Source: an uncultured Candidatus Cloacimonadota bacterium (GTDB lineage: Bacteria; Cloacimonadota; Cloacimonadia; JGIOTU-2). Taken from it: 64,000 nucleotides of DNA. How positions within the stretch are numbered: position 1 is the first letter of the stretch; each line of letters opens with the position of its first letter. The notes under the pieces were generated by a model. That model searched no databases. It was not told the origin of the DNA and was given only the letters and a program-made list of their open reading frames with translations. Shown piece by piece: positions 2,465-44,847 of the stretch. The stretch spans positions 221 to 64,220 of the forward strand of contig CAYNOU010000001.1 of NCBI GenBank assembly GCA_964398885.1. The letters run 5' to 3'. A program made the position numbers and the translations under genes.

Positions 2465-3333
2465 GAAAAATTTTAATAACAATATTTGTATTTATGCTGA
2501 GCACATCAGTATTTGCTAACATAGAATCCAATATTTTTGGCGATTATGAACCATCAGCAAGAGCACGAGGAATGGGCGGAGCATTTATCTCAAGTTGCAA
2601 TGACGCTGATGCTATTTTTTATAATCCTGCTGCCTTAGATATTGCAACTGCGGGAGTTAATACAGGTTATGCGAAACTATTTGGGAATGACTTTCAGATT
2701 TTGAAAACAGGTGCACTTGCTTTTCATCTGCCCAAATTTGGCACGATAGCTCTTGGAATAAAAAAAATGGGCATTGAATATCAGGATGTTGAATTGGAAA
2801 GTGAAGGAACTTATTCTCTTGCCCACTCATTTCTTCTTATTGGTGATATTCACTCAAAATTATATCTGGGATATACAGTAAATCTGAATTACATTTCTTT
2901 TGGAGAGACTGTCGGGGGATTTGACCCGGGCGAAGAATCTGTATTCGGACTGGATTTTGGTGCGCTTGCTATTCTCCATCAAAGAACTAAGATTGCCTTT
3001 GCGGTCAAAAATATAAACAACCCATCAGTGGGAAAAGGCAGAACATGGGACTTGCCACAGCTCTTGACAATTGGCATTGCATATCAGCCATATCACGGAG
3101 TTACAACCGAATTGGATTTGGAACAGAAATTTTCCGAAGAGACAAAAATTAATTTTGGTATTGAATTTGAGATAGTAGATAATTTTTGGTTGAGGACTGG
3201 TGCTTCAACTTATCCAAATAGTATCTCTGGTGGCATGGGGTTTCTAATCAAAGGTGTTAAATTTGATTATGGAATAAATACACATCCAGTATTGAACTCC
3301 ACACATCATTTTGCAATAGGGTATCAATTCTAA
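2461..3333 (+). CDS. Outer-membrane beta-barrel protein, FadL/PorV/PorQ-like
   Basis: A signal peptide is present. The N-terminal 'SARARGMGGAFISSCNDADAIFYNPAAL' motif is typical of FadL-fold/PorV-family barrels. The protein has an aromatic-rich alternating pattern and ends '...HHFAIGYQF'. Its start overlaps the HEPN stop. Confidence 0.6.
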   Translation: MRKILITIFVFMLSTSVFANIESNIFGDYEPSARARGMGGAFISSCNDADAIFYNPAALDIATAGVNTGYAKLFGNDFQILKTGALAFHLPKFGTIALGIKKMGIEYQDVELESEGTYSLAHSFLLIGDIHSKLYLGYTVNLNYISFGETVGGFDPGEESVFGLDFGALAILHQRTKIAFAVKNINNPSVGKGRTWDLPQLLTIGIAYQPYHGVTTELDLEQKFSEETKINFGIEFEIVDNFWLRTGASTYPNSISGGMGFLIKGVKFDYGINTHPVLNSTHHFAIGYQF

Positions 3334-3450: not shown

Positions 3451-3753
3451 ATGAAAAAAAAGGAAAAAGAAGAATCCTCTGCTCGTTCAACATTAATAAA
3501 AGGATTTATAAAGCTCTTTTTTAACTTTATTAATCATGCTATTAAAGATTGGGAGAATAAATTTAGCTCAAAAGGATATAAAGAATTATCTAAAAAATAT
3601 GATGTCTTTGAAAAACGCTTCTATAAAGATATTCAGGAAATGAAAAACAAAATTGAAAAACTTACACTAAAGGTATACTGGCTAAACTTCATAGCAATTA
3701 TACTTTTGATTTGTGTTGTGATTGAACTTATTTTATTAATTAAATTATTTTAG
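3451..3753 (+). CDS. Hypothetical coiled-coil protein with C-terminal TM helix
   Basis: I prefer the ATG at 3451, preceded by gagga, over the GTG at 3418. The C-terminal 'WLNFIAIILLICVVIELILLIKLF' is hydrophobic. I recognise no family. Confidence 0.4.
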   Translation: MKKKEKEESSARSTLIKGFIKLFFNFINHAIKDWENKFSSKGYKELSKKYDVFEKRFYKDIQEMKNKIEKLTLKVYWLNFIAIILLICVVIELILLIKLF

Positions 3754-3923
3754 CCACCTGCCTTCGTCAAACTATGGCAAGGCAAGCAGATTTGCACAGA
3801 TAGACACAGATATGTATTTAGGATAAAATTGAATAAACTATCAGTTAGAATCCGTGGCGAAAAGAAGAAACAAATCCGTGCTAATCTGCGAAAATCCGTG
3901 GCAAAGAATAAAATCGGGCTAAA

Positions 3924-6542
3924 ATGAAAAAAATAATATTCTTTCTTTTGTTCATATTTATAACTATCTCTCTGCCAATCTTTGCTCAAAACGGGCAATT
4001 AGACCTGAATCAGGCAAGCTTGAATGAGATAAAATCTCTGCCAATTACCGAAAAACAAGCTGAAGATATCTATTACTACCGAACTTACCAGAAATTTTTT
4101 GAATCTGTTTATGAACTGCGTGATATAAAAAGCATTGACCAAATAACCTTCAATAGAATAAAATCTTTGGTGAAGATCTTACCATACACAGACTACGATG
4201 AAGTAGCACAAAGAAGAGACCAGATTTATTATCTCTTGCGAAGCCTGGCTTCAAATGAAGGCTCTCAAGAAGGAATATCAGATTTGTGGGGTGACTTGCT
4301 AATATCCCCTATAAATATCAATACTGCTAACTTTCACGCTTTGCTGAATATACCTATTGTAACTCCAAATGATGTAAAGTCAATACTTTTACAACGGAAA
4401 GTAGGAGATTTTTCAGATTATAGAAGTATGCGGATGTCACCAGGTTTGACACATTATGGAGCAACAAATCTAAAAAATTATGTTATATACTATACTCCTG
4501 AAAAAAAAGGTAGATGGCATTTTAATTATCGATTAAAATTTAATAACTCTCCTTATTCAGAAGAATTAACTGAAGTTTTACGAGAAAGCTTTGTTCCAGA
4601 CAGCACAAACGAAAAATTCTCTATGTGGGGACGCTATCATCTGGATAACGCAGCACCAGAAATCTCTCATAAATTTAGAGCAAGGATGGAAGATTGGATT
4701 AACCTGGAATTCGGCTCAATCTTCTTTTTGAAGAAAGGTGAAAATCGTGATTTGAACTTCTTAGAACTCACTAATGAATGCTCAGAAACTATAAAAGATA
4801 ACTCAAAAACCAGCTTTACAGCAGATATCAAGCCCATAAAAACAAAAGTAATATTAGGAAATTATCGCGCTACTTACGGACAGGGACTGGTTATGGAAAA
4901 TACTGATTATTTTGATAGACGCAGAACAGGATTAGGTTATACAAAACGAGTCTTGGGAATTTTCCCTGACCTATCCCCTACCGAAGAATTTGCTTTAAAA
5001 GGTGGTGCTGTTGAATTTAATAATAATTTTCTGAATGCCTCTGTTTTTTATTCAAATGATAAAAAAGATGCAGTTGTCTGGGACAGCAATGATAACGACT
5101 CTCTTGATGTTGAAGATGACCTATTCTATTATATAATCTCAAAACCACGATTTTCTAATCACGAATTGGAAAGTGCTGAAGAATCCTTTAATCAATACCG
5201 TCCGGGCTTATCTTATTCATTGCCAGAAATTTTGATGGCACCACGCAAAGATATCTTAAAGGAAGTATTAACAGGAGGACATATAGAAGTATCTCCTGCT
5301 ATTGGCACTCATTTTGGAATTACTGCTTATGAAATAGAATACGACAGAAATTTTAAGGGTCCTTCTGCTAACTATAATTCTATTGGAAATTACCTTTTGG
5401 CTAATCCTGAAAAATATACAAAAAAGATTAAAATAACAGATTCTGAAATCTCATCCTTATACTCAACAATATATAAGATAGATACTCTAACCTACGAAAA
5501 AAATTATCGCAGAGTTTATGGTTTTGATTGGCAAACTACTCTCAACAATCTATCACTTCAAGGTGAATATGCAGAATTAGAAGTAAATGGCAAACCAGCA
5601 AAATTAGGCGATGACCCAAAAGCAATTGTGGCAAGTGCTTATTTAGGTTTTGAGAACCTAAACTTTCTTATGCTATACAGAAACTATGATTTAGCCTTTG
5701 ACAATCCCTATGCTCGCCCATTTGCAGAACACGAAAGATTTGATGGTACTATTCTTGAAAAACAATACTATTTGAAAAATCCACTCGTTTCTGAAATATA
5801 TTACAACTCTCCTTGGTCACAACCAGAAGAAGGGATTTATATTGAATCAAGATTTAAGTTTCATCGTCAACTAACTCTAACTAAAGCATATCTTGACATC
5901 TGGAAAAGAAAATCCGATGGAAGAAGAAGTATCCGTTTTCAAGGAGAATTAGATTATAGACCTATTTATCAGGTAAGCATCAGATTGAAAGAAAAACTGC
6001 AAACCAATCGCTCTGAAGACACCTCTGCAAGGTCAGTTTCCAAAACAAGCGAGACAACTCTTCGCCTGATAAACTATCTCACAAATAGAGATAAATTAGA
6101 GATTGAATACCGTTTTAATAAGGTCTGGATGGCTCCATACACTTCTCTTACAAATAGTGCAGAACCAGGCGAAGTTATTGTTCCAACTGCTGATGTCTTG
6201 AATCACGGTGATTATATCGCTGCAAACTATACACACAATTTCACAGATTATTTCCGAATTGAAGGCTCATTCTTGTTCTGGAATGGTCACGGAATCAGTC
6301 ACTGGGATTGGGAAGATATGGAGATTGATTTTATGGGCAGTGAAGGGATGAAATATTGGTTCACAATTTATGATAGAATATCTAATCATCTGGCTATCTC
6401 GTTCAAATATAAGGTTAAACATTATAGAGACGAAGAATTATACCTTAGAAAATATAATGAACCTATTGAGGGACAAAATTATGTTCCACAAACTAAACAC
6501 AAGGAAAGTTCCATAAGATTGCAGATTGATTGGAATTTTTAA
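3924..6542 (+). CDS. Secreted protein with two ComEA-like helix-hairpin-helix motifs fused to a large putative outer-membrane beta-barrel
   Basis: The signal peptide is 'MKKIIFFLLFIFITISLPIFA'. The HhH-type motifs are 'LDLNQASLNEIKSLPITEKQAEDIYYYR' and 'ININTANFHALLNIPIVTPNDVKSILLQRK'. About 650 aa of Y/F/W/N-rich sequence follows, ending 'RLQIDWNF' (terminal Phe). Confidence 0.55.
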   Translation: MKKIIFFLLFIFITISLPIFAQNGQLDLNQASLNEIKSLPITEKQAEDIYYYRTYQKFFESVYELRDIKSIDQITFNRIKSLVKILPYTDYDEVAQRRDQIYYLLRSLASNEGSQEGISDLWGDLLISPININTANFHALLNIPIVTPNDVKSILLQRKVGDFSDYRSMRMSPGLTHYGATNLKNYVIYYTPEKKGRWHFNYRLKFNNSPYSEELTEVLRESFVPDSTNEKFSMWGRYHLDNAAPEISHKFRARMEDWINLEFGSIFFLKKGENRDLNFLELTNECSETIKDNSKTSFTADIKPIKTKVILGNYRATYGQGLVMENTDYFDRRRTGLGYTKRVLGIFPDLSPTEEFALKGGAVEFNNNFLNASVFYSNDKKDAVVWDSNDNDSLDVEDDLFYYIISKPRFSNHELESAEESFNQYRPGLSYSLPEILMAPRKDILKEVLTGGHIEVSPAIGTHFGITAYEIEYDRNFKGPSANYNSIGNYLLANPEKYTKKIKITDSEISSLYSTIYKIDTLTYEKNYRRVYGFDWQTTLNNLSLQGEYAELEVNGKPAKLGDDPKAIVASAYLGFENLNFLMLYRNYDLAFDNPYARPFAEHERFDGTILEKQYYLKNPLVSEIYYNSPWSQPEEGIYIESRFKFHRQLTLTKAYLDIWKRKSDGRRSIRFQGELDYRPIYQVSIRLKEKLQTNRSEDTSARSVSKTSETTLRLINYLTNRDKLEIEYRFNKVWMAPYTSLTNSAEPGEVIVPTADVLNHGDYIAANYTHNFTDYFRIEGSFLFWNGHGISHWDWEDMEIDFMGSEGMKYWFTIYDRISNHLAISFKYKVKHYRDEELYLRKYNEPIEGQNYVPQTKHKESSIRLQIDWNF

Positions 6543-8516: not shown

Positions 8517-9842
8517 ATGAGTAAGCAGGCAGAAGGGATTGTAAAAAAGATGTTTGAAAATATTGATATTGATAAGGAATGGTCTTTTTCAGAATTCAGT
8601 CGCGCAGAAACTGCAAAATGGACTCATTGCTACCATCGGTATCCTGCCAAATTTATTCCACAATTAGTAGAAAAATTGATGAATGAATATATTAACTCAA
8701 AAAATGCTCATATCAATGACCCATTTATGGGAAGTGGCACAACGATTGTCTCAGCTATTGCAAGGGGTTACAAAGCGAGTGGAACAGACATAAATAAGAT
8801 AGCCTATTTAATGACAAAAGTAAAAGCAACTCCAATCGAACCTGATTGTCTAAAAAATAAAATTCAAGAATTTTTATACCAAATAGAAAAGATTGAGGAA
8901 GATGATGGAATTTTTTCAGCTACTAATAATTTAGAACCTCTTATTCCAGAAAGACATATAGAAAGAATAAACTATTGGTTCAATGAAAAAAACAAAATTA
9001 AATTAGGAAAAATATTAAGAATTATATACAATGAAAAAGATGAAACAACAAGAGATTTCTTTAAAGTTGCTTTTAGCCATATTTTAAAAAATTGTTCTAT
9101 TTGGTTGCAGAGCAGCACAAAACCAACAAGAGATTTAAAAAAAAATCCTATTTCTCCTTGCAAGGCATTATCAAGACATCTAAGAAAAATGGAAAAAGGT
9201 AATCGCTCCTTTTATGATGTGGTACCCAACTATGTTAAAAATAGAATTAACAATTACCTTAATATTAAATGTGATGATGCCAAAAGACAACCTGTAAAAG
9301 ATAATTCTGTTGATTTAATTATATCCTCAAGTCCTTATGTAACAAGCTATGAATATGCTGACTTACATCAACTTTCAACGATTTGGTTGGATTTGGCAGA
9401 TGACTTAACAGGTTACAAAAAAGAGTTTATAGGCACATCTTACAAAAAGTATGAAAACAAAAGTTTACGAAGCAAAATCGCTATAGATATTGTTGATAAG
9501 ATGTCTACAGAAAGTCCAAAGATGGCAAAGGAAATTGAAGCGTTTTTTATTGATATGGCAGAAATCTTTGATGAGAGTTTCAGAATTTTAAAACCAACTG
9601 GCAGATGCTGTTATGTCATTGGCGATACAAGATTGAAGGGTATAAATATACTAAATGCCGAAGTTTTTGCTGAAAGTTTACAGTATTCTGGTTTTAAATT
9701 AGATAGAATAATTAAAAGAGAAATTCCTTCAAAGATATTACCACAAAAAAGAGATGAGAAGACAGGAAGATTTGCCAATAATAACGATGCAAATTCCGAA
9801 GCATATCCAGTTGAATACATTATTATCGGGAGAAAGAAATGA
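8517..9842 (+). CDS. DNA methyltransferase (N6-adenine or N4-cytosine; not m5C)
   Basis: The AdoMet motif I is 'NDPFMGSGTT'. About 215 aa later comes the catalytic-type motif 'DLIISSSPY' (x-S-P-Y in place of (D/N/S)PPY), then 'ILKPTGRCCYVIGD'. The I...TRD...IV order suggests an alpha-like class. Confidence 0.8.
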   Translation: MSKQAEGIVKKMFENIDIDKEWSFSEFSRAETAKWTHCYHRYPAKFIPQLVEKLMNEYINSKNAHINDPFMGSGTTIVSAIARGYKASGTDINKIAYLMTKVKATPIEPDCLKNKIQEFLYQIEKIEEDDGIFSATNNLEPLIPERHIERINYWFNEKNKIKLGKILRIIYNEKDETTRDFFKVAFSHILKNCSIWLQSSTKPTRDLKKNPISPCKALSRHLRKMEKGNRSFYDVVPNYVKNRINNYLNIKCDDAKRQPVKDNSVDLIISSSPYVTSYEYADLHQLSTIWLDLADDLTGYKKEFIGTSYKKYENKSLRSKIAIDIVDKMSTESPKMAKEIEAFFIDMAEIFDESFRILKPTGRCCYVIGDTRLKGINILNAEVFAESLQYSGFKLDRIIKREIPSKILPQKRDEKTGRFANNNDANSEAYPVEYIIIGRKK

Positions 9843-10525
9843 TCGATTTTAATTATATTAAAAATAGATATTATGAATTAAAAACCAAGAATGAAGGATA
9901 TAATTTTATTGGAAAGATATTCAAAGAAGTTGAAGAAAAATATAAGATTGAAGCAGAAGAACGTGGAAAAAATCCACAGCAATCTTGGAATTCTTGGAGT
10001 GGTAAAGCTTTACAGAATTTAATAACCGAATTAGTAAAAGAACACATATTAAATTGTCACTATCAAGTCAACTTAACATCTGATGATGCTTTACGTGTTA
10101 AGAAATTAAATACAGAACTGGATCAAGTAAGAAGAAATATTGAAGTCTTTTATTCCCAATATTCTATTGTTCCCGATGCTGATATTATTGTTTATTCAAA
10201 CATAGATTATAAAGTAATATGTGTTTTTTCATGCAAAGCAAGTTTGAGAGAGCGTGTAGCACAAGCTGCCTATTGGAAAATAAAATTAACCCAATCAAAT
10301 GGAACAAAGAATATTTTCTATTATCTTGTTTCTACAGACAAAGACAAAGATTTTGTTATAAAAAATGGAAAGATAAGTAGAAATAGAATTATTGTTGAAG
10401 AAGGTGAACTGGATGGTGCTTACATATTAAGAGAAATTCATGAAAGTTCCATGGTTAAAAACTTTTCAAATATTTTTAATGATTTAAACAGAATATTTGA
10501 AGAATGGTTCGATATTAATAAATGA
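9839..10525 (+). CDS. Putative type II restriction endonuclease
   Basis: The gene has a 4-nt overlap with the upstream MTase. A PD-(D/E)xK-like arrangement 'VPDADIIVY...VFSCKASLRER' is present. I recognise no specific family. Confidence 0.5.
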   Translation: MIDFNYIKNRYYELKTKNEGYNFIGKIFKEVEEKYKIEAEERGKNPQQSWNSWSGKALQNLITELVKEHILNCHYQVNLTSDDALRVKKLNTELDQVRRNIEVFYSQYSIVPDADIIVYSNIDYKVICVFSCKASLRERVAQAAYWKIKLTQSNGTKNIFYYLVSTDKDKDFVIKNGKISRNRIIVEEGELDGAYILREIHESSMVKNFSNIFNDLNRIFEEWFDINK

Positions 10526-10630
10526 AAAAATCATTAATATTTACTCTACAAAACCTCAATAATAAAAAGTTTCTACTTAAAGGAAGTAAAAGTATTGTAT
10601 ATAGTATTATGATATAAAGGAATTATTAAA

Positions 10631-10876
10631 ATGATACAATTCAATGAAGAATGGAAAAAATTACAATATGAAATAATCTACAATAAACCACAAATAGATG
10701 GTCCTTATCCTCAAGAGATTGTAGATAAAAGAGAATTATTATTATATGCTCAAGTGGAATTAGAAAAAGCTCAAACCTCATATGATAATAAAAATAATAA
10801 CTTATGTAAATTTCACTCAAAATTATACTCATTAATAATGAAACATTACTATAAATGGATATCTGAAAATGCATAA
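10631..10876 (+). CDS. Small hypothetical protein translationally coupled to the second methyltransferase
   Basis: The 81-aa ORF has a stop at 10874-10876 overlapping the ATG at 10869 of the next gene. It has no obvious HTH. Confidence 0.35.
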   Translation: MIQFNEEWKKLQYEIIYNKPQIDGPYPQEIVDKRELLLYAQVELEKAQTSYDNKNNNLCKFHSKLYSLIMKHYYKWISENA

Positions 10877-11561
10877 TAAAAAAAATAAATTAATAATTGA
10901 ATCTACAACCCTCTGGGATTTTCCAACCCAAAATTATGGTAACATAAAACATGGCGATAATAAATATTCTGGCGTAACTCCTGCCTTTATTGTTTGGAAT
11001 CTTATCCAAAGATATACAAAAGAAGGGGATTTAGTGGTTGATCCTATGTGTGGAAGTGGAACAACTATTGATGTTTGCAATGAAGAAAATCGAAATGTTC
11101 TGGGCTTTGATATAGTCCCCTATAGACCTGATATAAAGCAAGCAGATGCGAGAAAGTTACCAGTAGATAACGAAATTGCCGATTTTATCTTTATTGATTC
11201 TCCTTATTCAGATAATATAAAATACAATGACCATCCTGATAATATAGGAAATATATCTTGCGAAAATCCAAGATTTTTTGAAGAATTAAATAAAGTAGCA
11301 AAAGAGCTTTTTAGAATTCTTAAACCTGATAAATATATTGCATGGCTTATTGGTGATCAAGCAAAAAAGAAACAATTCGTTCCTGTAGGATTAAAGTTAT
11401 ACTCAATATTGAATAAATATTTCACTCCTGTTGATATTGTTTGTGTTACAAGACACAATCAGACATCTAATACAAGAATTTGGGAATACAGAGCAAAAAA
11501 ATATAATTTCTATCTTAGAGGCTTCAAATATCTGATAATAATGAAGAAGAAAGAAATATAA
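10869..11561 (+). CDS. Second DNA methyltransferase (N6-A/N4-C type, compact)
   Basis: 'DLVVDPMCGSGTTIDVC' (motif I) is followed about 45 aa later by 'DFIFIDSPYSDN' (again x-S-P-Y) and 'ILKPDKYIAWLIGD'. The N-terminus has 'TLWDFPTQ'. Confidence 0.7.
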   Translation: MHNKKNKLIIESTTLWDFPTQNYGNIKHGDNKYSGVTPAFIVWNLIQRYTKEGDLVVDPMCGSGTTIDVCNEENRNVLGFDIVPYRPDIKQADARKLPVDNEIADFIFIDSPYSDNIKYNDHPDNIGNISCENPRFFEELNKVAKELFRILKPDKYIAWLIGDQAKKKQFVPVGLKLYSILNKYFTPVDIVCVTRHNQTSNTRIWEYRAKKYNFYLRGFKYLIIMKKKEI

Positions 11562-13333: not shown

Positions 13334-13443
13334 GATTGTATAAATCCACTCCTGCCTGTCCGTTCTTTGGCGAGAGATGGGTGTCCCGATTCATCGGGAT
13401 AAGTTAAGTTACAACACGATTGTGTCACATTATGGAGGCTTCA

Positions 13444-14706
13444 ATGGACATAAATAAAATTAGATATCAGGGCGACCTACAAGACACAAAAGATTTATAT
13501 GAAGTCTATAAAGTAAAACAGATTATAAGTTCTCACGAAGAAATATTGAAAGAGCATATTTCTTTTAGAGATGAACTTCTTGCAAATTCCGTCCGATTAA
13601 CATCTATTATATCTCCAAGAATTCGCAAAATTATTGAGAAAGTTAAGACGATATTTGACATCAAGGAAAATGTTGAATTCTTTTCTCTAAACAACAATAG
13701 TTACAATGCTTTTGCTTTCAAACAGAAATCTAACATAAGCATTGTCTTCACTTCAGGATTATTAGAAAACTTTTCTGATAATGAAATCCTGTTCGTATTG
13801 GGGCACGAAATTGGACATATCCTGTTTAACCACAATCGGCTTTTGCTTTTATACAATCCAAGTAAAAGAAAAATCACTTTTTTGCCAATTCTTGCGGAAA
13901 AAAAATTCTTAACATGGCAAAAAAAGGCAGAAATCAGCTGTGATAGAGCAGGTCTGGTTGCTTGCATGAATTATGAAACTGCTATCCAAAGTCTGCTCAA
14001 AATTTCGTATGGACTTACAGAAAAGAATCTAAACTTCAATTTACCAGAGCTAATGAGCCAATTGGATGACATTGCTCACTCTGAATATCTCTCACAGCTC
14101 AGCACAGCCACCCATCCCCTATTGCCAGTTCGTCTTAAAGCCCTTGAATTATTTCATAATTCAAAACTATTCTCTAAAAAGGGTAAAATCTCCCCAGAAA
14201 AACTTTCAGAAGAAGTTGATAAATTAATCGGGCTTACAAAATTCTATCCACGCAATAAAACTAAAGAACAAATGATGAAATTCATTGCTTCTGGTGGTGT
14301 CTCTATTATTGCAGCAGATAGAGAAATCAATATTGAAGAAATAAAAAGCCTGGTAAAAATCTTAGCAGATGTGTTCACAGATGACCCTGAAAAAGAGATT
14401 GTTTATGACAAAGAAAAAGTGGAAGCACAGTTAAAAAAATCTGCAAAATATCTTAAAGAAAAAGGCACTGATTACGACAGATTCTATGCGATGCATTTTT
14501 TGACAGTTATTGCTCTTTCTGATGGAAAATATACTATCAAAGAGAAGAATATGCTGCTTAAACTCGCAGAATCAATTGGCTTTTCTAAAGATGACGCTAT
14601 GGGTGTCGTCTGGAAAACTTTGCAACAAAATGGCATTAATATTGATGTGCGACTTAACGAAATAGCACAAAATGTAAAAGAACATTATGCTGATTATCTA
14701 AAATAA
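13444..14706 (+). CDS. M48-family zinc metallopeptidase-like protein with C-terminal TerB-like domains
   Basis: 'VLGHEIGHILFNH' contains HExxH. The C-terminal 'MHFLTVIALSDGKYTIKEKNMLLKLAESIGFS' is TerB-like. I prefer the ATG at 13444, 5 nt after ggagg, over the TTG at 13420. Confidence 0.65.
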   Translation: MDINKIRYQGDLQDTKDLYEVYKVKQIISSHEEILKEHISFRDELLANSVRLTSIISPRIRKIIEKVKTIFDIKENVEFFSLNNNSYNAFAFKQKSNISIVFTSGLLENFSDNEILFVLGHEIGHILFNHNRLLLLYNPSKRKITFLPILAEKKFLTWQKKAEISCDRAGLVACMNYETAIQSLLKISYGLTEKNLNFNLPELMSQLDDIAHSEYLSQLSTATHPLLPVRLKALELFHNSKLFSKKGKISPEKLSEEVDKLIGLTKFYPRNKTKEQMMKFIASGGVSIIAADREINIEEIKSLVKILADVFTDDPEKEIVYDKEKVEAQLKKSAKYLKEKGTDYDRFYAMHFLTVIALSDGKYTIKEKNMLLKLAESIGFSKDDAMGVVWKTLQQNGINIDVRLNEIAQNVKEHYADYLK

Positions 14707-14935
14707 TCTATATATAAATCCTATTAAACTTCGGAGGTTTTATGAGCTGTCAGGGACCATTCCCTGACATTTCTTGCCAGAGGACAGATCCTTTGGAAAA
14801 GATATTCAGTGGTTGGTTTAAGTTCGTCATGGAGTGGTCCATGACGACTCCTCGGAAAATGGCATTAATATTGATGTGCGACTTAACGAAATAGCACAAA
14901 ATGCAAAAGAACATTATGCTAATTATTTAAAATGA
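14627..14935. repeat. 80-bp direct duplication of a gene's 3' end flanking a 149-bp hairpin-module cassette
   Basis: Copy 14627-14706 (the last 26 codons plus stop of the M48/TerB gene) matches 14856-14935 with 4 mismatches by eye, including stop TAA vs TGA. The intervening 14707-14855 consists of palindromic modules. Confidence 0.85.
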
Positions 14936-14961
14936 TAGTAAACCAAAAGAGGCAAATTATT

Positions 14962-15714
14962 ATGAAAAAAAATATTATAGCGCTATTTGTTATCATAACT
15001 TGCTTAACTTTTCCTTTATTTTCGAATACGATAATCATAAAAAATGAGGCGGGTAAAGAAGGTGATACGCTGTCAACTAAATCAAAAATTGACTCTATCT
15101 ATTTAACTCAAAAACAAATGCGTAACATCCAACAGAAACTGTATAAAACTCTGCGGAATAAACCACTTCAAGATAAAAAATATGGCATAGAAATAAACAT
15201 TCTAAGATTATTATTTTTTGGAACTAATAATGTTTTTTTTAACCATACTCTTAGTGGAGGAATATCATTTTTCAATATAGATAGACATGCGGAGATTACA
15301 TTCCCCTTTTATTATTCTCATCCAGAATTTAATTGGGATGATGATTGGGAAGTGGAGGAAGATAAACTTCAACAGTTTACCTTAGATTGTCATTATAGAC
15401 GTTTTTTAGGAAATACACAAAACGGATTCTACATAAGTGGATTTATCCGATATGCAAATCTTCGTGGATATGAAGGCTATTATTATTGGGGAGATGATAA
15501 TCATAAAAAAAGCACTGAAAACAAATTGGGAGTTGGAATCGGTATTGGTTATAGGAAATTTTCTTACAAAGGATTCTATTGGGGAACAAGCCTAAATTTG
15601 GGCAGATATATCATTGGAGAAAATGATAAATTTAAAGGTGAATTTTTTGAGTATGATAATGACAATGAAGTTGTTTATAGCTTTGAATTATTAAAGTTTG
15701 GTTGGGCATTCTAA
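14962..15714 (+). CDS. Hypothetical secreted/outer-membrane protein
   Basis: The ATG at 14962 follows agagg; the upstream ATG at 14932 lies inside the duplicated gene tail. A signal peptide 'MKKNIIALFVIITCLTFPLFS' is present. The protein is Y/G/W-rich and ends 'KFGWAF'. Confidence 0.5.
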   Translation: MKKNIIALFVIITCLTFPLFSNTIIIKNEAGKEGDTLSTKSKIDSIYLTQKQMRNIQQKLYKTLRNKPLQDKKYGIEINILRLLFFGTNNVFFNHTLSGGISFFNIDRHAEITFPFYYSHPEFNWDDDWEVEEDKLQQFTLDCHYRRFLGNTQNGFYISGFIRYANLRGYEGYYYWGDDNHKKSTENKLGVGIGIGYRKFSYKGFYWGTSLNLGRYIIGENDKFKGEFFEYDNDNEVVYSFELLKFGWAF

Positions 15715-17319: not shown

Positions 17320-17400
17320 TTTAATATTCATATGAAAATCTCTTGCCACAGAGTCACACCCGTTCTCCGTCCAGATTATATCGGGACTGCGAAGGGTGAA

Positions 17401-17596
17401 GAGCACACAGAGATAAATGTAAAATTACGAATTACAATTAAATTGCAATGATCTTAACACCATTTTTAATGGTGTTTTAATAAACAGTCCCCGCGTACGC
17501 GGGGATCAAATCCTGCCCGTCTTGGCTCGGCACCAAGCCGAGACAGGTTAGGAACAAATGGGATCTGTGCATTCAGCCTCTCAATTTTCATACTCC
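17401..17596. repeat. 196-bp composite module repeat, copy A
   Basis: It matches 44462-44657 in the same orientation with about 9 mismatches by eye. It contains the hairpins aacaccattttt-aatggtgtt, tccccgcg-ta-cgcgggga and ctcggc-accaa-gccgag. Confidence 0.9.
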
Positions 17597-17685
17597 TTCG
17601 TGTTAAGTATAATCGGTGACTACATCTATGTTTAATTATTTTATAAAAAATTTATTTAAAACTACTTTTTTTAAGAAAGGAAAAA

Positions 17686-21699: not shown

Positions 21700-21845
21700 C
21701 CTTTCTCGTCTTCTCGTCTTCTCGTCTTCTCATCTTCTCATCTTCTTGTCTTCTCATCTTCTCGTCTTCTCGTCTTCTCATCTTCTCATCTTCTTGTCTT
21801 CTCATCTTCTCGTCTTCTCGTCTTCTCATCTTCTCGTCTTCTCCT
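21700..21845. repeat. Polypyrimidine octamer tandem array (~18 units) with 48-bp higher-order period
   Basis: The unit is TCTTCTYR, seen as tcgtcttc, tcatcttc and ttgtcttc. The variable dinucleotides read cg | cg cg ca ca tg ca | cg cg ca ca tg ca | cg cg ca cg. The array is intergenic, 75 bp upstream of 21920. Confidence 0.9.
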
Positions 21846-27937: not shown

Positions 27938-28260
27938 ATTTGATATAAAAACCTCTTAATTTCGAAAATGTTACAATGACTTTTGCTTTGCTTAAACTCT
28001 CATTCCCAAGCCCTCCCCAATTGAATTGGGGATTGGGAATGCTTACAACGCCATTTTCATTCTCCTTTCAGGCTCGGCGCCTCTGTCTCGGCTCCCGATA
28101 TATCGGGAGACGGGCAGACGGGTGCGTCTCGATTTGTTTTCGGGACATGTATGTTTCATCTTTAATCTTTTTCCTTTAATCTTTCCGCCATAGGCGGATC
28201 AGCCTCAGGCTGATAGTCTTTATTTTTGCGTTTTACAGCGCTATGCATTCCTAAAATATA

Positions 28261-31863: not shown

Positions 31864-32003
31864 AGAAATTTACCTCAAAATAGTTTGCCTAATTTTACAG
31901 TAGATAAATTGATGATATCAATTTGAAAACGGTTAACGGATGACGCCTGACGAAACGAGCATCGCAACCGGAACCGTTTAACGAAATATTAAATGGAGGT
32001 AAG

Positions 32004-32174
32004 ATGGCAGTAAAGATTGATAAGGAAAAATGTATTGGCTGCGGCGTATGCGTGGATGTCTGCCCAACAGAGGCACTCTCTCTTGTGGATGATATTGCTG
32101 TTTGTGATGAAGATTTATGTGTTGATTGCGGAGTTTGCATCCCAGAGTGCCCCTCAGAAGCAATATCTGAATAA
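32004..32174 (+). CDS. 2x[4Fe-4S] ferredoxin (56 aa; below the ORF-track length cut-off)
   Basis: The sequence is ggagg-taag-ATG, 'MAVKIDKEKCIGCGVCVDVCPTEALSLVDDIAVCDEDLCVDCGVCIPECPSEAISE*'. It has two CxxCxxCxxxCP motifs. Confidence 0.85.
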   Translation: MAVKIDKEKCIGCGVCVDVCPTEALSLVDDIAVCDEDLCVDCGVCIPECPSEAISE

Positions 32175-32241
32175 GACCCAAATTATTCAAAAGCCATCTC
32201 CCCACAATTTAGTGGATGGATGGCTTTTTTGGGTATGATTT

Positions 32242-33678
32242 ATGAAAAAAATATTAATTATTATTTTCTCAATTTTATCTGTTAGTTGCTCATCTCAATT
32301 AAAAGAGGTTAATAATATTGATAAACCAGATATAGCAGATTCATTAAAAACTCAACAACTAATAGAGCAATATAAAATTATTTTTAACAATCAGCAAAAA
32401 GAAATAGATTCATTATATCAAATTGTTGCGGAGTTACAGGATTCAATAAATTTTTTGAATAACACGATTAGAATAAAAAACAATGCCAAATTTCCTGATT
32501 CCTTATTATTTGCCGGTTATAGGTTTGACCTCACAAATGAAAGATTAAGGCAAAAATTTATAAAATGTTACAAAGCTGAATTAAAATTTGCATATAAATA
32601 TATTCCAAGAAGCACAAAGTATTTTCCTATTATTGAAGAAATCCTGGGTGATTACAATCTCTCTAATGATTTAAAATATTTAGTAGCAGCAGAAAGTTAT
32701 CTTAGTCCTTTTGCAAAATCTTCTGCTGGGGCAACTGGTTTCTGGCAATTTATGAAATCTACAGCAAAATACTATGACTTACAGATTAATCAGTTTGTTG
32801 ACCAACGAATGGATATTTTTGCGTCAACAAAGGCGGCGTGTGAATATATTTTGTGGGCTCACAAGTCATTAAAAAGTATGGGTGCCAATGACATGCTTCT
32901 GGCTATTTGCTCATTCAACTCAGGTTTGGGAAATATTAAAAAAGCTATTAATGAACAAGGAGGAAAGGATTTCTTTAGTCTTATTCAAAGAAAAAGTGAA
33001 ACCGATGATTATATATGGCGAGCTTTAGCAATTAAGTATATCATTGAAAACGAGGATAAAATATTTACGAAAAAATTTGAAAGAGAACAAAATCTACTAT
33101 CCACTTGTAAAACTGTTGATCTTACTTTAAAGGGGTATTATAAATTAGATGATTGGGCACAAGCACAAGGAACTTATATTAAACAAGTTTGGGAATTGAA
33201 CCCATGGATAAAGATTTATAAAAGAAATCAATATAGATACTCTCCTATTAATGATGTGATTATTAGCCCCGGCACTTATACAATTCTAATTCCAAAAGAT
33301 TCATCCCCTGATGAAACCAAATTAGCAAGGATAGAAAAACAATTCTTAAATAAAAATGATGGGTATTTTGCGATTGAACATATTGTAAGAAAAGGTGAGA
33401 ATTTGTCTATTATTGCAAAACGTTATAATACAACTGTAACCAATCTTATGAATATAAATGGATTACGCTCAACAACGATTTATCCAGGACAGAAATTAAG
33501 CCTGATAACAAACTATGGAAACTATTATGTAGTAAAAAAAGGCGATTCGCTTTATAAAATTTCTCAAAAATTAGGTATATCAAGTCAAAGACTTATTGAT
33601 AAAAATAATTTATTAGTAAAAAATAGAGCAGGAAAGAAGATAGTTTATATCTATCCCGGGCAGAAGCTTTATTTTTAA
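32242..33678 (+). CDS. Lipoprotein lytic transglycosylase with two C-terminal LysM domains (MltD-like)
   Basis: The lipobox is 'LSVSC'. The SLT motif is 'AESYLSPFAKSSAGATGFWQFM'. LysM repeats are 'HIVRKGENLSIIAKRYNTTVTNLMNINGL' and 'YVVKKGDSLYKISQKLGISSQRLIDKNNL'. Confidence 0.8.
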   Translation: MKKILIIIFSILSVSCSSQLKEVNNIDKPDIADSLKTQQLIEQYKIIFNNQQKEIDSLYQIVAELQDSINFLNNTIRIKNNAKFPDSLLFAGYRFDLTNERLRQKFIKCYKAELKFAYKYIPRSTKYFPIIEEILGDYNLSNDLKYLVAAESYLSPFAKSSAGATGFWQFMKSTAKYYDLQINQFVDQRMDIFASTKAACEYILWAHKSLKSMGANDMLLAICSFNSGLGNIKKAINEQGGKDFFSLIQRKSETDDYIWRALAIKYIIENEDKIFTKKFEREQNLLSTCKTVDLTLKGYYKLDDWAQAQGTYIKQVWELNPWIKIYKRNQYRYSPINDVIISPGTYTILIPKDSSPDETKLARIEKQFLNKNDGYFAIEHIVRKGENLSIIAKRYNTTVTNLMNINGLRSTTIYPGQKLSLITNYGNYYVVKKGDSLYKISQKLGISSQRLIDKNNLLVKNRAGKKIVYIYPGQKLYF

Positions 33679-33871
33679 AACGATACAAATAAATCAACTC
33701 AGGTGTCATGGTCCATACCATGACACAAATCACTGTCAGGGAATGGTCCCTGACAGCCCATGTTAAAATAAGATCCAACACGATTTATAATCATGTTTTT
33801 TAGACACCATTATAAATGGTGTCGAATCAGATTATGCTAAATTAAATAAAGAAATATTTTATCAAATAAAT

Positions 33872-36076
33872 TTATCTTAGAAGCAGCATCTTTTTAACGG
33901 CTGATTTATCTCCTGAAGATAATCTACAAAAATATATTCCATTAGGAACTTGGTTTCTATTCTCATCTTTCCCATCCCAATTTATGGAGTAGTCCCGATA
34001 CATCGGGGCTTTCGTGGAGAGAGACTCTCCACACTCCAAGCATTTCACCAATTGTCCTTTTACATTATAAATTTTTATCTCTGCGTTCTTTGCGTCTCTG
34101 CGGTGAATATTAAAAGATATAGTGGTTGAGCTGCTGAAAGGATTAGGATGGTTAGTAAGTTGGACACCATTTGCTATTTGAAGCTCCTCATCAACACTCG
34201 CAGTTGAATATTCATAAATACTTGCAGAAGTGCTTTCTAAATATAAGAGATAATTATTACTATTTCGTTTAAAAGGTATAATACTCGTTGCATGTGACCA
34301 GTTCTGAAAATTATAAATTTCGTTTAAGTAGTTGTATTCAATACTTGTTAAATCGTATATACTACATGTTTCCCCACCTAAAAATAAAAGATGATTCTCT
34401 CTATCAATACCTAATCTTCCGCCTTTGTTAATAGTGAATAAATATTCCGGCGTTTCTGGATTTGAAATATCAAATATACTGCAATCACCGAAATCAAGAC
34501 TTTCACTGATAAAAAGATAATGTTCATAAGTTCCTATATTCTGAGCAGGCATAATATCCTCCAATATGAGAGTATTTGCTAATTCTAAATCAGTAGTATC
34601 AATATTTCTGACTACATAGAGGTCATCACCTAAAATTATATAGGCAATATTATCATAAAAACAGATAAATCCACCATGAGCACCTGGTATTTCTAATGTA
34701 GCCACTTCCTCTAATTGATTATTAGAATCAAGTATATATTTATGCAATGTATCGTTATAAACTATGAAAAATCCAATATCTTCTTTATAATATGGCTCAA
34801 GTGCCTGAATATAAAGAGTATCCCAAGGTATAAGGCCACCTTCTTCTGTGATATTTAATATTATATCTACCCATATTTCATTTTCTATGTCAGTCATTCC
34901 AGAAATAGCTATTATATCTCCGTCACCATAAAATAAAGCAGAATGGAACTCTTCAAGATATTCTCCAATATATTGTGGGTCATTGAGGTTAGAAATATCA
35001 AAGGAATGGATTCCACGAAGATAAGAATTTACAAAAAACATATTATCTCGTATATATGCGTTATAAAAACTACCATAGGTACAATAATTTCCAATATGGT
35101 CTAAACTATTCTCTGCAATGGAAAATATCTCTATGCCGTATTCACCTGCTCCCCAATAAACTATATTATTATAAATTATTGGTTTTCCACCACCCCATAC
35201 AGGATATACATCATGATAATAATCTAAAAGAACAGGATTGTCCAAATTGCTTATGTCAAAAAGTCTTAAACCACTACCACTTACAATCATTTTATCACCA
35301 GAAATATCTATATTCCACTGAAACAGTTCTATTTCATTTATCATTTCCCAATCAAATGGTTCTGAAATATCCCAAAATTCTATCTCAGCACCATTGCCGA
35401 TAACAAGAATGGTATCTTGTATAAGCTTAGCGCATCTATAACCCCAAGTATCATTTACATCATATTGAGCAATGACTTGCAAACTATCAGGATTTGATAT
35501 ATCATATAGTCTTACAATCCCATGTAATTTATTAAAGGCAATATTTTCTTTAATGTATAGTAGAACTAAATTCTGGGGAGCATCAATTTGGGTGATTTCA
35601 TCAAATGTTTCATTATCATAGATATGAATTATACTTTTGCTATTTTGATAATCCCAATCGTGAACAAAGACATAATTATTATTTATAAAAGCATAAGAGA
35701 ATGAATTGAGATATAAGGAATCAGTTAAAACTGGATTGTATTTATCTTCAATATTAAAACGATAAAGAACATATTCTGGAATGAGAGTAGATGCATAAGC
35801 AAAATTATCCTTAACCACCACACTATAAGTAAGATGATATAGATTCACATCACTTAATAATGTTAAGCTATGGTCATCTTCAATATGGAATATCTGGAAG
35901 CACCTTATATTTACAGCGTAGAGATAATCATCCTGAATATTAAATCCATCATAATCTGGGGAATAACATCCCGAAAAGCCAAACTCTGAAATCTTGTTAA
36001 ATTCAAAAGCATTTATAAAAAGGGGATCAGCAAATATTATTAAGGTTAGGATTAATGATAAAATTATATATTTCAT
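33872..36076 (-). CDS. Surface protein with LVIVD-like beta-propeller repeats and T9SS-type C-terminal domain
   Basis: I prefer the start at 36076 ('MKYIILSLILTLIIFA' after aagagg) to the 36259 extension. Repeats are 'RLYDISNPDSLQV', 'LRLFDISNLDNPVL', 'IHSFDISNLNDPQY' and 'CSIFDISNPETPEY'. The C-terminus is 'NPFSSSTTISF...IKIYNVKGQLV...GIYFCRL'. Confidence 0.7.
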   Translation of the reverse strand: MKYIILSLILTLIIFADPLFINAFEFNKISEFGFSGCYSPDYDGFNIQDDYLYAVNIRCFQIFHIEDDHSLTLLSDVNLYHLTYSVVVKDNFAYASTLIPEYVLYRFNIEDKYNPVLTDSLYLNSFSYAFINNNYVFVHDWDYQNSKSIIHIYDNETFDEITQIDAPQNLVLLYIKENIAFNKLHGIVRLYDISNPDSLQVIAQYDVNDTWGYRCAKLIQDTILVIGNGAEIEFWDISEPFDWEMINEIELFQWNIDISGDKMIVSGSGLRLFDISNLDNPVLLDYYHDVYPVWGGGKPIIYNNIVYWGAGEYGIEIFSIAENSLDHIGNYCTYGSFYNAYIRDNMFFVNSYLRGIHSFDISNLNDPQYIGEYLEEFHSALFYGDGDIIAISGMTDIENEIWVDIILNITEEGGLIPWDTLYIQALEPYYKEDIGFFIVYNDTLHKYILDSNNQLEEVATLEIPGAHGGFICFYDNIAYIILGDDLYVVRNIDTTDLELANTLILEDIMPAQNIGTYEHYLFISESLDFGDCSIFDISNPETPEYLFTINKGGRLGIDRENHLLFLGGETCSIYDLTSIEYNYLNEIYNFQNWSHATSIIPFKRNSNNYLLYLESTSASIYEYSTASVDEELQIANGVQLTNHPNPFSSSTTISFNIHRRDAKNAEIKIYNVKGQLVKCLECGESLSTKAPMYRDYSINWDGKDENRNQVPNGIYFCRLSSGDKSAVKKMLLLR
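33972..34141. repeat. 170-bp block identical to 37182-37351 (inside T9SS C-terminal-domain coding sequence)
   Basis: By-eye alignment with a constant offset of 3210 nt shows no mismatch. Flanking coding sequence on both sides diverges. The block contains the hairpins cccgat-ac-atcgggg and gtggagag-aga-ctctccac. Confidence 0.85.
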
Positions 36077-36728: not shown

Positions 36729-36892
36729 TGAAACCAGAAATGTAAAATGTAAAATTAAAAATGAAAAATTAGGGATAGGAATGGTAGAATGGAATATTAA
36801 AATATCGTCATTGCTCAAACACAATTTTTTCTTTCTTGCTTTCATCTTTTCCCCAAAAATATAAATACAATTTAATAATAATTAAAATAACC

Positions 36893-36938
36893 TTGTCAAA
36901 TAAAAGTTACTTAAAGAGTAAAAAAATAAGTACAAAAT
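36893..36938. repeat. Conserved ~45-bp box, copy 1
   Basis: ttgtcaaataaaagttacttaaagagtaaaaaaataagtacaaa recurs at 40593-40637 with 1 mismatch. Both copies lie upstream of minus-strand T9SS-cargo genes. Confidence 0.85.
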
Positions 36939-37081
36939 TATACTCTATTATCCCGATCCGTTCAGACTTCCCGATGAAATCGGGGAGACTAATATACCCG
37001 TTCTCCGGAGCACTGCGAAGGGTGAATCGGGAGTATCAGAGCAGATTATGGAGAGATAAAAAAATATTTTATCAAATAAAC

Positions 37082-38089
37082 CTATCTCAGAAGTAGCATC
37101 TTCTTAACTGCTGATTTATCTCCTGAAGATAATCTACATAAATAAATTCCAGTTGGTAACTGCTTTCCATTTTTATCTTTTCCATCCCAATTTATGGAGT
37201 AGTCCCGATACATCGGGGCTTTCGTGGAGAGAGACTCTCCACACTCCAAGCATTTCACCAATTGTCCTTTTACATTATAAATTTTTATCTCTGCGTTCTT
37301 TGCGTCTCTGCGGTGAATATTAAAAGATATAGTGGTTGAGCTGCTGAAAGGGTTGGGATAAGAGGATAGCATTAATTTTTCTTTTTCTCTATTTGAATTT
37401 TCCGTAACAGAGGTAATTATGTGATAAAATATCTTTAAGTAAGGCCGTTTTTCCGGGAAATCAATACCAATATCACTAGTATAAAAACATAAAAAATCCC
37501 AATGATTATCATAATCTGTATTTATTGGAAAGCGAACACGAAATTGGCATCTCTCATAATCTTCTTGTACTAAAGTTTCTATATAGGAGCCTACCTGCAT
37601 TTTTTGAAATCCGATATTAAAATAAGAACATAACACACCTATATTGCTGACAATAGTTTGGGGATCACCCGGATCGCCAGCTGTCCAATCTGAATAGTCT
37701 AAACTTGGACCATAATCTATAAGATCCATAATACAGAACAATGTATCGCCACCTGGCACATCCCATATTGGGTAAGAATAATTCCCAATATTACTTTGGC
37801 CATTATATAGATAAACACCAACCTCCGCTGAATCTATTTCAGTGCTATCATTGAACAATATTAATGGCATGTCAAAAGAAAGATAGCCTCTGTCGTAGGA
37901 AGTATACTGAACCCAATCACCAGGATAAAACCCCAATGATATTGTGCTCATATTATAAAAACCACCATTTTCAGCATATGACATATCACCATCCAGATAA
38001 TCTGTACTATAAACAATTAGTGAATCCTGAGCTCGTAGAGAAATGGAAAAGAAGAGTATAAAAGTATAGATAAAAACTACTTTTTTCAT
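37082..38089 (-). CDS. Secreted protein with T9SS-type C-terminal domain
   Basis: A signal peptide is present. The last ~90 aa are nearly identical to those of 33872..36076. Confidence 0.65.
   Translation of the reverse strand: MKKVVFIYTFILFFSISLRAQDSLIVYSTDYLDGDMSYAENGGFYNMSTISLGFYPGDWVQYTSYDRGYLSFDMPLILFNDSTEIDSAEVGVYLYNGQSNIGNYSYPIWDVPGGDTLFCIMDLIDYGPSLDYSDWTAGDPGDPQTIVSNIGVLCSYFNIGFQKMQVGSYIETLVQEDYERCQFRVRFPINTDYDNHWDFLCFYTSDIGIDFPEKRPYLKIFYHIITSVTENSNREKEKLMLSSYPNPFSSSTTISFNIHRRDAKNAEIKIYNVKGQLVKCLECGESLSTKAPMYRDYSINWDGKDKNGKQLPTGIYLCRLSSGDKSAVKKMLLLR
37182..37351. repeat. 170-bp block identical to 33972-34141
   Basis: See the partner feature at 33972-34141. Confidence 0.85.
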
Positions 38090-40429: not shown

Positions 40430-40592
40430 GATGACTCCTTTCTTAATGGGTATAATGAATTCTGCAGAATAGAGAAACAACACTCAAAGCTGTCATTTTG
40501 ATAATTCCATTAAATGAGTTTAGTATTATTATTTGCTTTTAAATTTCTTTATCAACTATTTAGGAAACAATTTTATAAAAATAAAAAATATT

Positions 40593-40637
40593 TTGTCAAA
40601 TAAAAGTTACTTAAAGAGTAAAAAAATAAATACAAAC
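40593..40637. repeat. Conserved ~45-bp box, copy 2
   Basis: It matches 36893-36938. It lies 164-208 nt upstream of the 40429 start. Confidence 0.85.
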
Positions 40638-40757
40638 TATGCTCCAACACGGTTTGTAATCATGTTTTAATATTGTTTAGACACCATTACAAATGGTGCC
40701 GGATCAGATTATGTAAGTTACAAATGGTGTCAGAGCAGATTATTTTTAAAAAAATAT

Positions 40758-44431: not shown

Positions 44432-44461
44432 ATGTAAATCCTTTTTTGCCACAGAGGCACA

Positions 44462-44657
44462 GAGCACACAGAGATAAATGTAAAATTACGAATTACAAGT
44501 ACATTGCAATGATCCTAACGCCATTTTTAATGGTGTTTTAATAAACAGTCCCCGCGTACGCGGGGATCAAATCCTGCCCGTCTTGGCTCGGCACCAAGCC
44601 GAGACAGGTTAGGAACAATTAGGATCTGTACATTCAGCCTCTCAATTTTCATTATCC
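44462..44657. repeat. 196-bp composite module repeat, copy B
   Basis: It matches 17401-17596. The flanking spacer 44658-44790 carries further modules: gtcccgactcgtcgggat and tcccggtatatcgggagacgggcagac. Confidence 0.9.
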
Positions 44658-44847
44658 TTTGTCCCGACTCGTCGGGATGAATATTTCATCTAAAAATAAC
44701 CCGCAAATGATATGTTTCAAACACCATTATCCCGGTATATCGGGAGACGGGCAGACAGGTGAAATACTTTGTAATCAATTTAATCAGGGACGGCATGAAT
44801 GTTTCATTGTTGCGAAAGAGTTTGAATTTGTTTTTTTGGATTTTCTG

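Follow-up and report, generated by a model that had tools for sequence, protein, structure and literature searches.

Allelic copies of a gene end around a small hairpin element in an uncultured Cloacimonadota bacterium

Arrangement of the M48/TerB gene end and the hairpin element

We analyzed the 3' end of an M48 peptidase/TerB-domain gene and the small hairpin element behind it in 64,000 nt of DNA from an uncultured Candidatus Cloacimonadota bacterium (contig CAYNOU010000001.1 of assembly GCA_964398885.1, forward-strand positions 221 to 64,220), a stretch here referred to as the window. Since the window comprises 64 kb only and not the whole genome, the element copies counted in it are not a genome-wide census.

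The M48/TerB gene (13444-14706, + strand), as given in the list of open reading frames (ORFs), encodes a protein of 420 aa (P0001) with the Pfam families PF01435 and PF05099. Its homologues come from Cloacimonadota and are named M48 family metallopeptidase. The end of the gene is part of a direct repeat of 81 nt (14627-14707 and 14856-14936, 95% match), which is the only long local non-coding direct repeat within the window. A preliminary description of this DNA had reported an 80-bp repeat of the gene end with 4 mismatches and a second copy out of coding context, and both observations are confirmed here. The 80-nt copies (14627-14706 and 14856-14935) differ at repeat positions 49, 66, 72 and 79, the differences being T/C, G/A, C/T and A/G. 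Copy 1 represents, in frame, the last 26 codons and the stop of the M48/TerB gene. No reading frame leads into copy 2, which ends in TGA 26 nt ahead of the ATG of the next gene.

The two copies are separated by 149 nt. Here, an intergenic spacer (14707-14737, + strand, TCTATATATAAATCCTATTAAACTTCGGAGG) is followed by the long form of the hairpin element (14738-14856, + strand), which is 119 nt in size and consists of TTTTATGAGC, hairpin 1 (hp1), a middle hairpin, a linker, hairpin 2 (hp2) and ACTCCTCGGA. The element is bounded by TTTTATGAGC and CTCCTCGGA, and these ends are sharply conserved against unrelated flanks. At the junction with copy 2 the two sequences overlap in A/AAAAT.

Filled and empty strains

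The same structure was found base for base in three further contigs from three other JGI samples (L004, L005 and L006), all of which encode the exact M48 protein of the window. Together with the window they were compared as filled sites to the strains L001 and L002. In these two near-identical strains the M48 gene ends only once and the next gene follows 26 nt on, so that the empty site with a single tail anticipated in the preliminary description does exist. Their M48 protein (P0002) is one residue off the window protein and ends in ...ANYLK.

Compared to L001 and L002, the filled strains carry an extra segment of 229 nt. An upstream alignment of 5,261 nt between the window and L001 revealed only 3 differences, each of which falls within the final 32 nt of copy 1. 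In addition to these three from the BLAST alignment, copy 1 differs from L001 by its stop (TAA as against TGA). The upstream background contained no single-nucleotide polymorphism (SNP) in 5.2 kb between the window and the empty strains. The most economical alignment of the window with L001 requires one indel of 229 nt (14676-14904) and one SNP at 14905, and downstream of this position 8 further SNPs were found in 4 kb. The difference between filled and empty strains is a recent and real polymorphism. The structure is not an assembly artefact, as it is identical in three other JGI assemblies.

Within the 250-aa gene that follows the repeat, 6 of these SNPs fall in 70 nt (15627-15696), where the window and L004 differ from L001, L002 and L005. 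This patch is a short imported recombination tract. Since it segregates independently of the filled or empty state, short tracts of diverged lineages are being exchanged in the population.

The two repeat copies are different alleles

Copy 2 (14856-14935, + strand) equals the single tail of L001 and L002 except for a GCA codon in place of GTC, and the same 26-nt spacer follows. It carries the native states AAT, TTA and TGA, and it is the displaced native M48 tail, which retains the native TGA stop and runs into the native spacer and the next gene. Over its first 48 nt (14627-14674, + strand), copy 1 does not differ from copy 2 or from the single tail of the empty strains. In its distal part (14675-14706, + strand), copy 1 reads GTA, GAT, CTA and TAA as opposed to the native GTC, AAT, TTA and TGA, and it encodes ...ADYLK in place of ...ANYLK. 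Judging from the alignments, this part is the tail of a foreign allele. As the copies differ in the distal part only, with no mismatch in the first 48 nt and four in the last 32 (Fisher p 0.026, tested on a 47/33 split of the 80-nt repeat), a homologous exchange at repeat positions 49-50, at the 3' edge of the shared portion, is indicated.

The spacer behind copy 1 has a foreign character as well. The stretch TCTATATATAAATCCTATTAAACTTCGGAGGTT (14707-14739) matches the spacer following the M48 gene of L003 at 27 of 33 positions without gaps and aligns poorly with the native spacer. L003 is one of three other lineages (besides L007 and L016) compared at this locus, and its M48 gene is 88.7% identical to that of the window, corresponding to a lineage approximately 11% diverged. 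The genes 3' of M48 differ in these three lineages, and the M48 tail therefore forms the edge of a variable block. In the window this block starts with the next gene (14962-15714, + strand), which encodes a protein of 250 aa without a Pfam family; a look-up of this protein returned no record.

The tail of copy 1 and the spacer are not the product of drift in a local duplicate, because the 5.2 kb of background contain no SNP. On these alignments, the last 32 nt of the functional M48 gene and the next 31-35 nt are imported from another allele of the locus, and about one fifth of the 149-bp cassette is imported intergenic DNA. It had been proposed earlier that the 149 bp consist of modules. This is not supported, since some 31-35 nt are the intergenic spacer of the donor allele. 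Nor is there support for a duplication made from the local target, as the two copies were different alleles from the start.

Architecture of the element

The family profile matched the window copy with an nhmmer E value of 3e-33. Three hairpins closed by the termini are predicted, with z-scores of -4.1 for folding as RNA and -5.6 as DNA. Hp1 (14748-14769, + strand) reads TGTCAGGGA-CCAT-TCCCTGACA and is followed by TTTCTT. It is weakly terminator-like and was the only such feature in a promoter and terminator scan. Hp2 (14825-14846, + strand) reads CGTCATGGA-GTGG-TCCATGACG, a CGTC-tagged palindrome that is the most conserved part of the family. Both are related palindromes with a 9-bp stem and a 4-nt loop. 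The middle hairpin (14777-14796, + strand, CCAGAGGACAGATCCTTTGG) is restricted to long-form copies, namely those of the window and L009 and the partial copy at 51080-51163.

The element ends are imperfect terminal inverted repeats, with 20 of 26 positions matching between GAGCTGTCAGGGACCATTCCCTGACA and the reverse complement of the right end GAGTCGTCATGGACCACTCCATGACG. Inverted comparison of the hp1 and hp2 arms also gave 20/26, and nhmmer matched the reverse strand of every copy; the palindromes are perfect and an orientation is not assignable. As the linker differs by 0, +5, +4, -2, -2 and +1 nt among six copies, with indels not divisible by three, the element is not protein-coding. A small peptide had been considered, because a minus-strand ORF with GAGGAG-ATG looked conserved between two copies, and was rejected. 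The compensatory change in hp1 of L009 is better read as a swap for another palindrome module (TCCGCCAGTTGGCGGA), seen elsewhere, than as covariation.

Distribution of the element

The family was drawn from scans with a 25-mer of hp2, which yielded 2 loci among the species representatives of GTDB (2 genomes) and 6 in a metagenome scan (6 contigs). In total, 6 full-length copies, 9 instances counting full or partial copies and 4 solo hairpins were scored. The six full-length copies, each from a different locus with unrelated flanks, had the exact termini TTT(T)ATGAGC...ACTCCTCGGA in common. The short form measures 83-90 nt, and the long form (window and L009) carries CCAGAGGACAGATCCTTTGG as an extra hairpin. 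All nine instances were intergenic and co-oriented with both neighbouring genes (0.5^9 = 0.002). The distance from the CTCCTCGGA end to the next start codon was 2-175 nt, or approximately 26 nt when the duplicated copy is disregarded or a different start codon is assumed.

The window contains two copies of hp2 and one diverged relative. The second hp2 copy belongs to a partial element (51080-51163, - strand), which extends from the middle hairpin to CTCCTCGGA, lacks hp1 as well as a flank repeat and lies 88 nt upstream of a co-oriented 658-aa TPR gene. An inverted recurrence of an 81-nt unit had been placed at 51083-51163; the recurrence stands, and the unit comprises 84 nt (14775-14858), with the inverted copy at 51080-51163 showing 96% identity. 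A polymorphism check at this copy was uninformative, as the contigs L017 and L018 break inside hp2. The diverged short relative (33703-33761, - strand) is composed of ATGGGC-hp1, 7 nt and an hp2-like GTGTCATGG..CCATGACAC (nhmmer E 9e-8). The hairpin TGTCAGGGACCATTCCCTGACA of the window copy (14748-14769, + strand) recurs inverted as described earlier, at 33734-33755 (- strand) and thus a few bases off the 33727-33750 given then; zero chance matches are expected.

No match to the element was found in viral contigs, phage records or plasmid records. A search of the window against Rfam gave nothing at the gathering score, and the sole weak hit (E 0.67) is attributed to chance.

Long flank repeats at other loci

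For each copy, 200 nt on either side were compared by Smith-Waterman alignment against 200 shuffles. Long direct flank repeats were present in 3 of the 6 full-length copies: the window (81 nt, z 40), L009 (66 nt, z 33) and L010 (47 nt at 77% identity, z 11). The repeated sequences of the three loci are mutually unrelated. At three other loci the element has the same exact ends and no flank repeat, a short repeat is absent from L011, L012 and L014, and none of the 4 solo hairpins carried a long one. A search for other cassettes with long flanking duplications had been suggested earlier; L009 and L010 are such cases, although no other module within the window is flanked in this way.

In L009, the repeat comprises the end of a TPR gene (its final three codons and stop) together with 56 nt of spacer. 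The site is single-copy and empty in nine contigs of two related lineages. The copy following CTCCTCGGA is of native type, and the copy ahead of the element has private variants. Furthermore, L009 is 90.4% identical to its nearest lineage (group B) over 3.1 kb to the left and 97.3% identical over 669 nt to the right, with the jump located exactly at the element.

L010 is the mirror image of this arrangement. A relic murE start (MRLPNLISVLKNYKIL*) abuts the left end of the element and encodes a divergent N-terminus of MurE. The functional murE start is located 3' of the element and resembles the start found in relatives. In all three cases the novel junction lies at an element terminus, i.e. 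the right end in the window and L009 and the left end in L010, and in all three the copy across the element from this junction is of a different allelic type. The earlier view of the duplication as a footprint of how the modules move is correct as well.

The murE leader was also encountered in another context. Three element copies at unrelated genes (L010 2808-2832, L011 ~11265-11293 and L015 ~3150-3186, all on the minus strand) share a 25-nt extension, CAATGSACAAAAAAAGRGATTTTCA, which ends at a start codon. The 3' half of the extension resembles the native murE leader of L029, and of the first 30 nt of the L011 gene, 22 agree with the murE start. These likenesses hint at leaders and gene starts travelling with the element. 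A putative relic gene start beside the L014 copy (GGAGTATGAAAA) was discarded, as it belongs to a different repeat module, which L029 carries too.

A probable joint between two alleles of one locus

Based on these findings we consider the long repeat to be probably the recombination joint of two alleles of one locus and not a target-site duplication. What the data show directly is that an empty site exists, that 14675-14737 is of foreign origin, that the element has precise ends and that the arrangement recurs at two other loci. One of the alleles would be an unsampled one, in which an M48 tail (ADYLK, TAA) and an L003-type spacer are followed by the 119-nt element, which resembles a dimer of repetitive extragenic palindromic (REP) sequences. 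The other allele would be of the element-less L001/L002 type. Both may have met in one cell after gene transfer and may have been joined out of register. On the left side, a homologous exchange would have taken place within the M48 tail at repeat positions 49-50. On the right side, the element terminus (CTCCTCGGA, overlap A/AAAAT) would have been joined illegitimately to a point 80 nt upstream in the element-less allele. The expected product is an intact M48 gene with an imported end, followed by the element and the displaced native end.

Such a join would require either a small circle of flank and element that was integrated by a single crossover, or a donor strand that paired with two sister chromosomes. 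In pneumococcus, transformation-driven tandem duplication has been explained by alternative pairing and interchromatid integration, with the donor on two sister chromosomes (PMC3784515). The hairpin terminus might favour the illegitimate join, either passively, as a hairpin at the border of homology, or by being cut by a nuclease. Presumably only products with an intact gene survive, and this would explain why the arrangement looks as if it preserved the gene end. With respect to the direction there are two options: either an element-less chromosome gained the element together with its flank, or the neighbouring genes entered a resident that already bore the element. The sharp breakpoint could be accounted for by a second haplotype with the same upstream sequence, whose divergence begins at about position 49.

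Several points weigh against this interpretation. The donor allele, comprising the M48 tail, the L003-type spacer, the element and a different downstream gene, was found in no collection. It would be expected to read GCTGATTATCTAAAATAATCTATATATAAATCC, then the element and then a gene other than the 250-aa one. P0005 (L007) and P0004 (L016) have other spacers and other downstream genes, P0006 returned no record, and all three contigs that encode P0001 are already duplicated. At repeat positions 48-50, the empty strains and the outgroups have the codon GTC, copy 1 has GTA and copy 2 has GCA; because of these three states, a single reciprocal crossover is insufficient without a short heteroduplex patch or an extra change. 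The A/AAAAT microhomology was judged against the family consensus CGGA[AC]AAT, from which it can only be deduced, and it is weak at L009. For DNA uptake by this organism, the short imported tracts segregating among strains are only indirect evidence. Finally, the duplicated cases number only three, and L010-L014 may come from a single genome.

Alternative explanations

An active, one-ended mobilisation is possible, though we regard it as rather unlikely. According to this scenario, a trans-acting single-strand nuclease or transposase, e.g. a Y1 HUH enzyme like those of the REP-associated tyrosine transposases (RAYT), cuts one terminus of the element. The cut end is then transferred to an element-less homologue, at a site close by, and homologous recombination closes the other side, so that the flanking gene ends travel along. 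Candidate cut points are the element termini, i.e. directly after CTCCTCGGA and directly ahead of TTTTATGAG. The novel junction at an exact element terminus in all three cases, the invariance of the termini across loci and the CGTC-tagged palindrome of hp2, which is like that of REPs, fit this idea. The 25-nt extension common to L010, L011 and L015, with its likeness to the L029 murE leader, would also look as if flanking DNA had been carried along. Tentatively, the element could then be a non-autonomous mobile unit whose spread between alleles and lineages is one-ended and assisted by homology; each move would drag a gene end or start along and leave an allelic duplication of 47-81 nt.

With regard to the enzyme, a search of the genome for a RAYT-like, IS200/IS605-like or recombinase gene had been suggested. 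The related Cloacimonadota contig L028 carries, downstream of murE-acpS, a gene (3516-4259) for a 247-aa Y1_Tnp/IS200-like protein with an HVH motif (PF01797, E 2e-7), which is a candidate enzyme for palindromic repeats and speaks for this scenario. However, tblastn with this single query found no Y1 gene in the window or at any other locus bearing the element (integrases and other recombinases were not screened in the window), and the L028 gene has no demonstrated flanking CGTCATGG...CCATGACG hairpins. Moreover, CGTC-tagged REPs have no known dedicated transposase (PMC3733652), the copy number of the element looks low, with 2 hits among the GTDB species representatives, and an excision product or circle was never observed.

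It is improbable that the filled state is ancestral and that the empty strains arose by deletion between the 80-nt repeats, which would in any case explain the polarity only and leave the structure in need of a separate origin. Direct repeats of 80 nt with 48 identical bases are good deletion substrates, and filled and empty strains coexist in one sample series. However, a crossover between the copies gives GTA or GCA, and the empty strains possess GTC, as do the outgroups L003 and L016; a deletion origin is unlikely for this reason. In addition, all sampled relatives are empty at the L009 site.

The preliminary description had likened the arrangement to integrative elements that enter the 3' end of a gene and bring a replacement end. 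Integrative elements are known from the 3' ends of genes and tRNA genes, including integrase-less derivatives that can be mobilised in cis, and their incoming DNA supplies a functional 3' end. The part of this comparison that concerns the replacement end is correct, as copy 1 is foreign and copy 2 native. A remnant of a site-specific element, in which an integrase and an attP with the gene end had been lost with the body and attL and attR now surround a scrap, would have the same geometry, with the native end displaced downstream. We nevertheless consider such a remnant very unlikely. Three unrelated repeats flank the same element at three loci, so that none of them is an att site borne by the element, and at three other loci the same exact ends occur without any repeat. 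The 149 nt between the repeats contain no gene and leave no room for an integrase, and none was found among the genes called beside the site, to which this screen was limited within the window. Matches in phage, plasmid and viral collections were lacking as well. Taken together, the unrelated repeats, the repeat-less copies and the absence of a gene inside exclude an integrase att site.

It is hardly credible that widely staggered cuts at transposition produced a genuine target-site duplication of this length, or that the repeat is a simple tandem duplication of local origin. The only point in favour is that a direct repeat immediately flanks an inserted repeat element. The two copies differ allelically in spite of a background with 0 SNPs in 5.2 kb, and a staggered-cut duplication is excluded because they are different alleles; the earlier opinion that this is no ordinary target-site duplication was thus justified. 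Furthermore, copy 1 is separated from the element by approximately 31-35 nt of foreign spacer, the repeat length varies from 47 to 81 nt with half of the copies having none, and a tandem duplication would have copied the element too.

An assembly chimera of two strains or the template and variable repeat of a diversity-generating retroelement, as might be suspected for a metagenome with coexisting strains and a repeat at a gene's 3' end, can practically be dismissed, since four independent assemblies are identical here at every base, the reads must contain the junction CTCCTCGGAAAATGGCATT, the mismatches (T/C, G/A, C/T, A/G) are not adenine-specific and an empty allele without the second repeat exists. 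The 80-nt repeat is also shorter than the k-mers that are probably usual for such assemblies (the contig name of L009, with k141, shows the sole k value).

Comparison with known systems

CGTC-tagged REPs are stem-loops with an 8-9-bp stem, a 4-5-nt loop and CGTC at one end (PMC3733652). They mostly occur as dimers, have no known dedicated transposase and include dRS3 of Neisseria and RPE of Rickettsia (Di Nocera et al. 2013, PMC3733652). Hp2 at 14825-14846 agrees with this published definition. Like dimers of CGTC-tagged REPs or REPINs, the element has two related palindromes per unit, is intergenic, varies between strains and species and has no adjoining transposase. However, hp1 starts with TGTC despite the same architecture. 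The element also differs from REPs by its fixed non-palindromic termini (TTTTATGAGC and ACTCCTCGGA), an optional third hairpin and an apparently low copy number. The pairing of REPINs with a RAYT was not found at the element loci, as tblastn with the L028 protein showed.

With miniature inverted-repeat transposable elements (MITEs) it shares the small size, the imperfect terminal inverted repeats (20/26), the non-coding nature and the defined ends. In contrast to MITEs, it lacks a short target-site duplication of fixed length, and no autonomous element sharing its ends was found. The element is a member of a REP-dimer/MITE-like group. Within the limited literature search, no report of long allelic flank repeats was found for REPs, and a recurrent link between such an element and long allelic repeats of a gene end is not described in the literature searched. 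Unlike in integrative elements, no integrase was seen, the repeats are not a constant att sequence and the element measures only 119 nt. The mismatches between the copies are also not restricted to adenines, as would be typical of a diversity-generating retroelement.

The allelic joint that we favour is similar to homology-facilitated illegitimate recombination (Johnston et al. 2013, PMC3784515), where one homologous and one illegitimate junction are combined and foreign DNA is trapped beside a homologous anchor. The duplications described there comprise about 100 to 900 kb, whereas the segment here comprises 47-81 nt. Moreover, in each of the three independent cases here the illegitimate joint lies at a specific terminus of the element.

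Bacteria very commonly carry small palindromic repeat elements. The movement of most of them is unexplained, and the CGTC-tagged class is without a known enzyme. The clean pair of filled and empty sites in an almost clonal background, together with two further loci, suggests that the element brings along part of the gene next to it in the donor and that a long allelic repeat results. This would be a testable footprint of spread by recombination between lineages and not by classical transposition. Such elements could replace the ends or starts of genes, murE included, without destroying them. For annotation this means that long "target duplications" beside small repeats can be imported alleles. 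If the movement were indeed one-ended and homology-assisted, it would be a mode not described for REP- or MITE-like elements, by which tiny elements shuffle gene termini and leaders.

Other repeats and genes in the window

A restriction-modification cluster with two N6_N4 methyltransferases and a BsaWI-like endonuclease (L001 1-2118, corresponding to ~9444-11560 of the window) is located just upstream of the 5'-nucleotidase and M48 genes.

Several further repeats were observed. A hairpin family, (G)TCTCCCGATATATCGGGAGAC with variants, is present at 909-940, 28093-28124 and 44730-44761 and additionally at 736-776 and 13363-13403. One member lies just upstream of the M48 gene, and a related hairpin is nested in the L015 copy of the element. 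A 202-nt composite of GC-rich hairpins (AACACCATTTTTAATGGTGTT, GTCCCCGCGTACGCGGGGAT and CCCGTCTTGGCTCGGCACCAAGCCGAGACAGG) occurs at 17400-17601 and 44461-44662 with 95% identity, and the copy at 17400-17601 is also found at that site in L001, L004 and L005. Between two + strand genes, an intergenic tandem array (21703-21843) is built from 17.6 copies of an 8-nt unit (TTCTCGTC/TTCTCATC) with 89% matches.

The cumulative GC skew of the window peaks at approximately 33-34 kb, and the genes switch there from the + to the - strand in convergent orientation, as at a replication terminus (32000-35000). A cluster of hairpin modules (33700-33840) is situated exactly at the peak. Finally, the regions 33765-34145, 36867-37355 and 40567-40713 have upstream or intergenic segments in common (300 nt at 93%, 70 nt at 89%, 44 nt at 89% and 35 nt at 86%), which suggests paralogous genes with a common leader.

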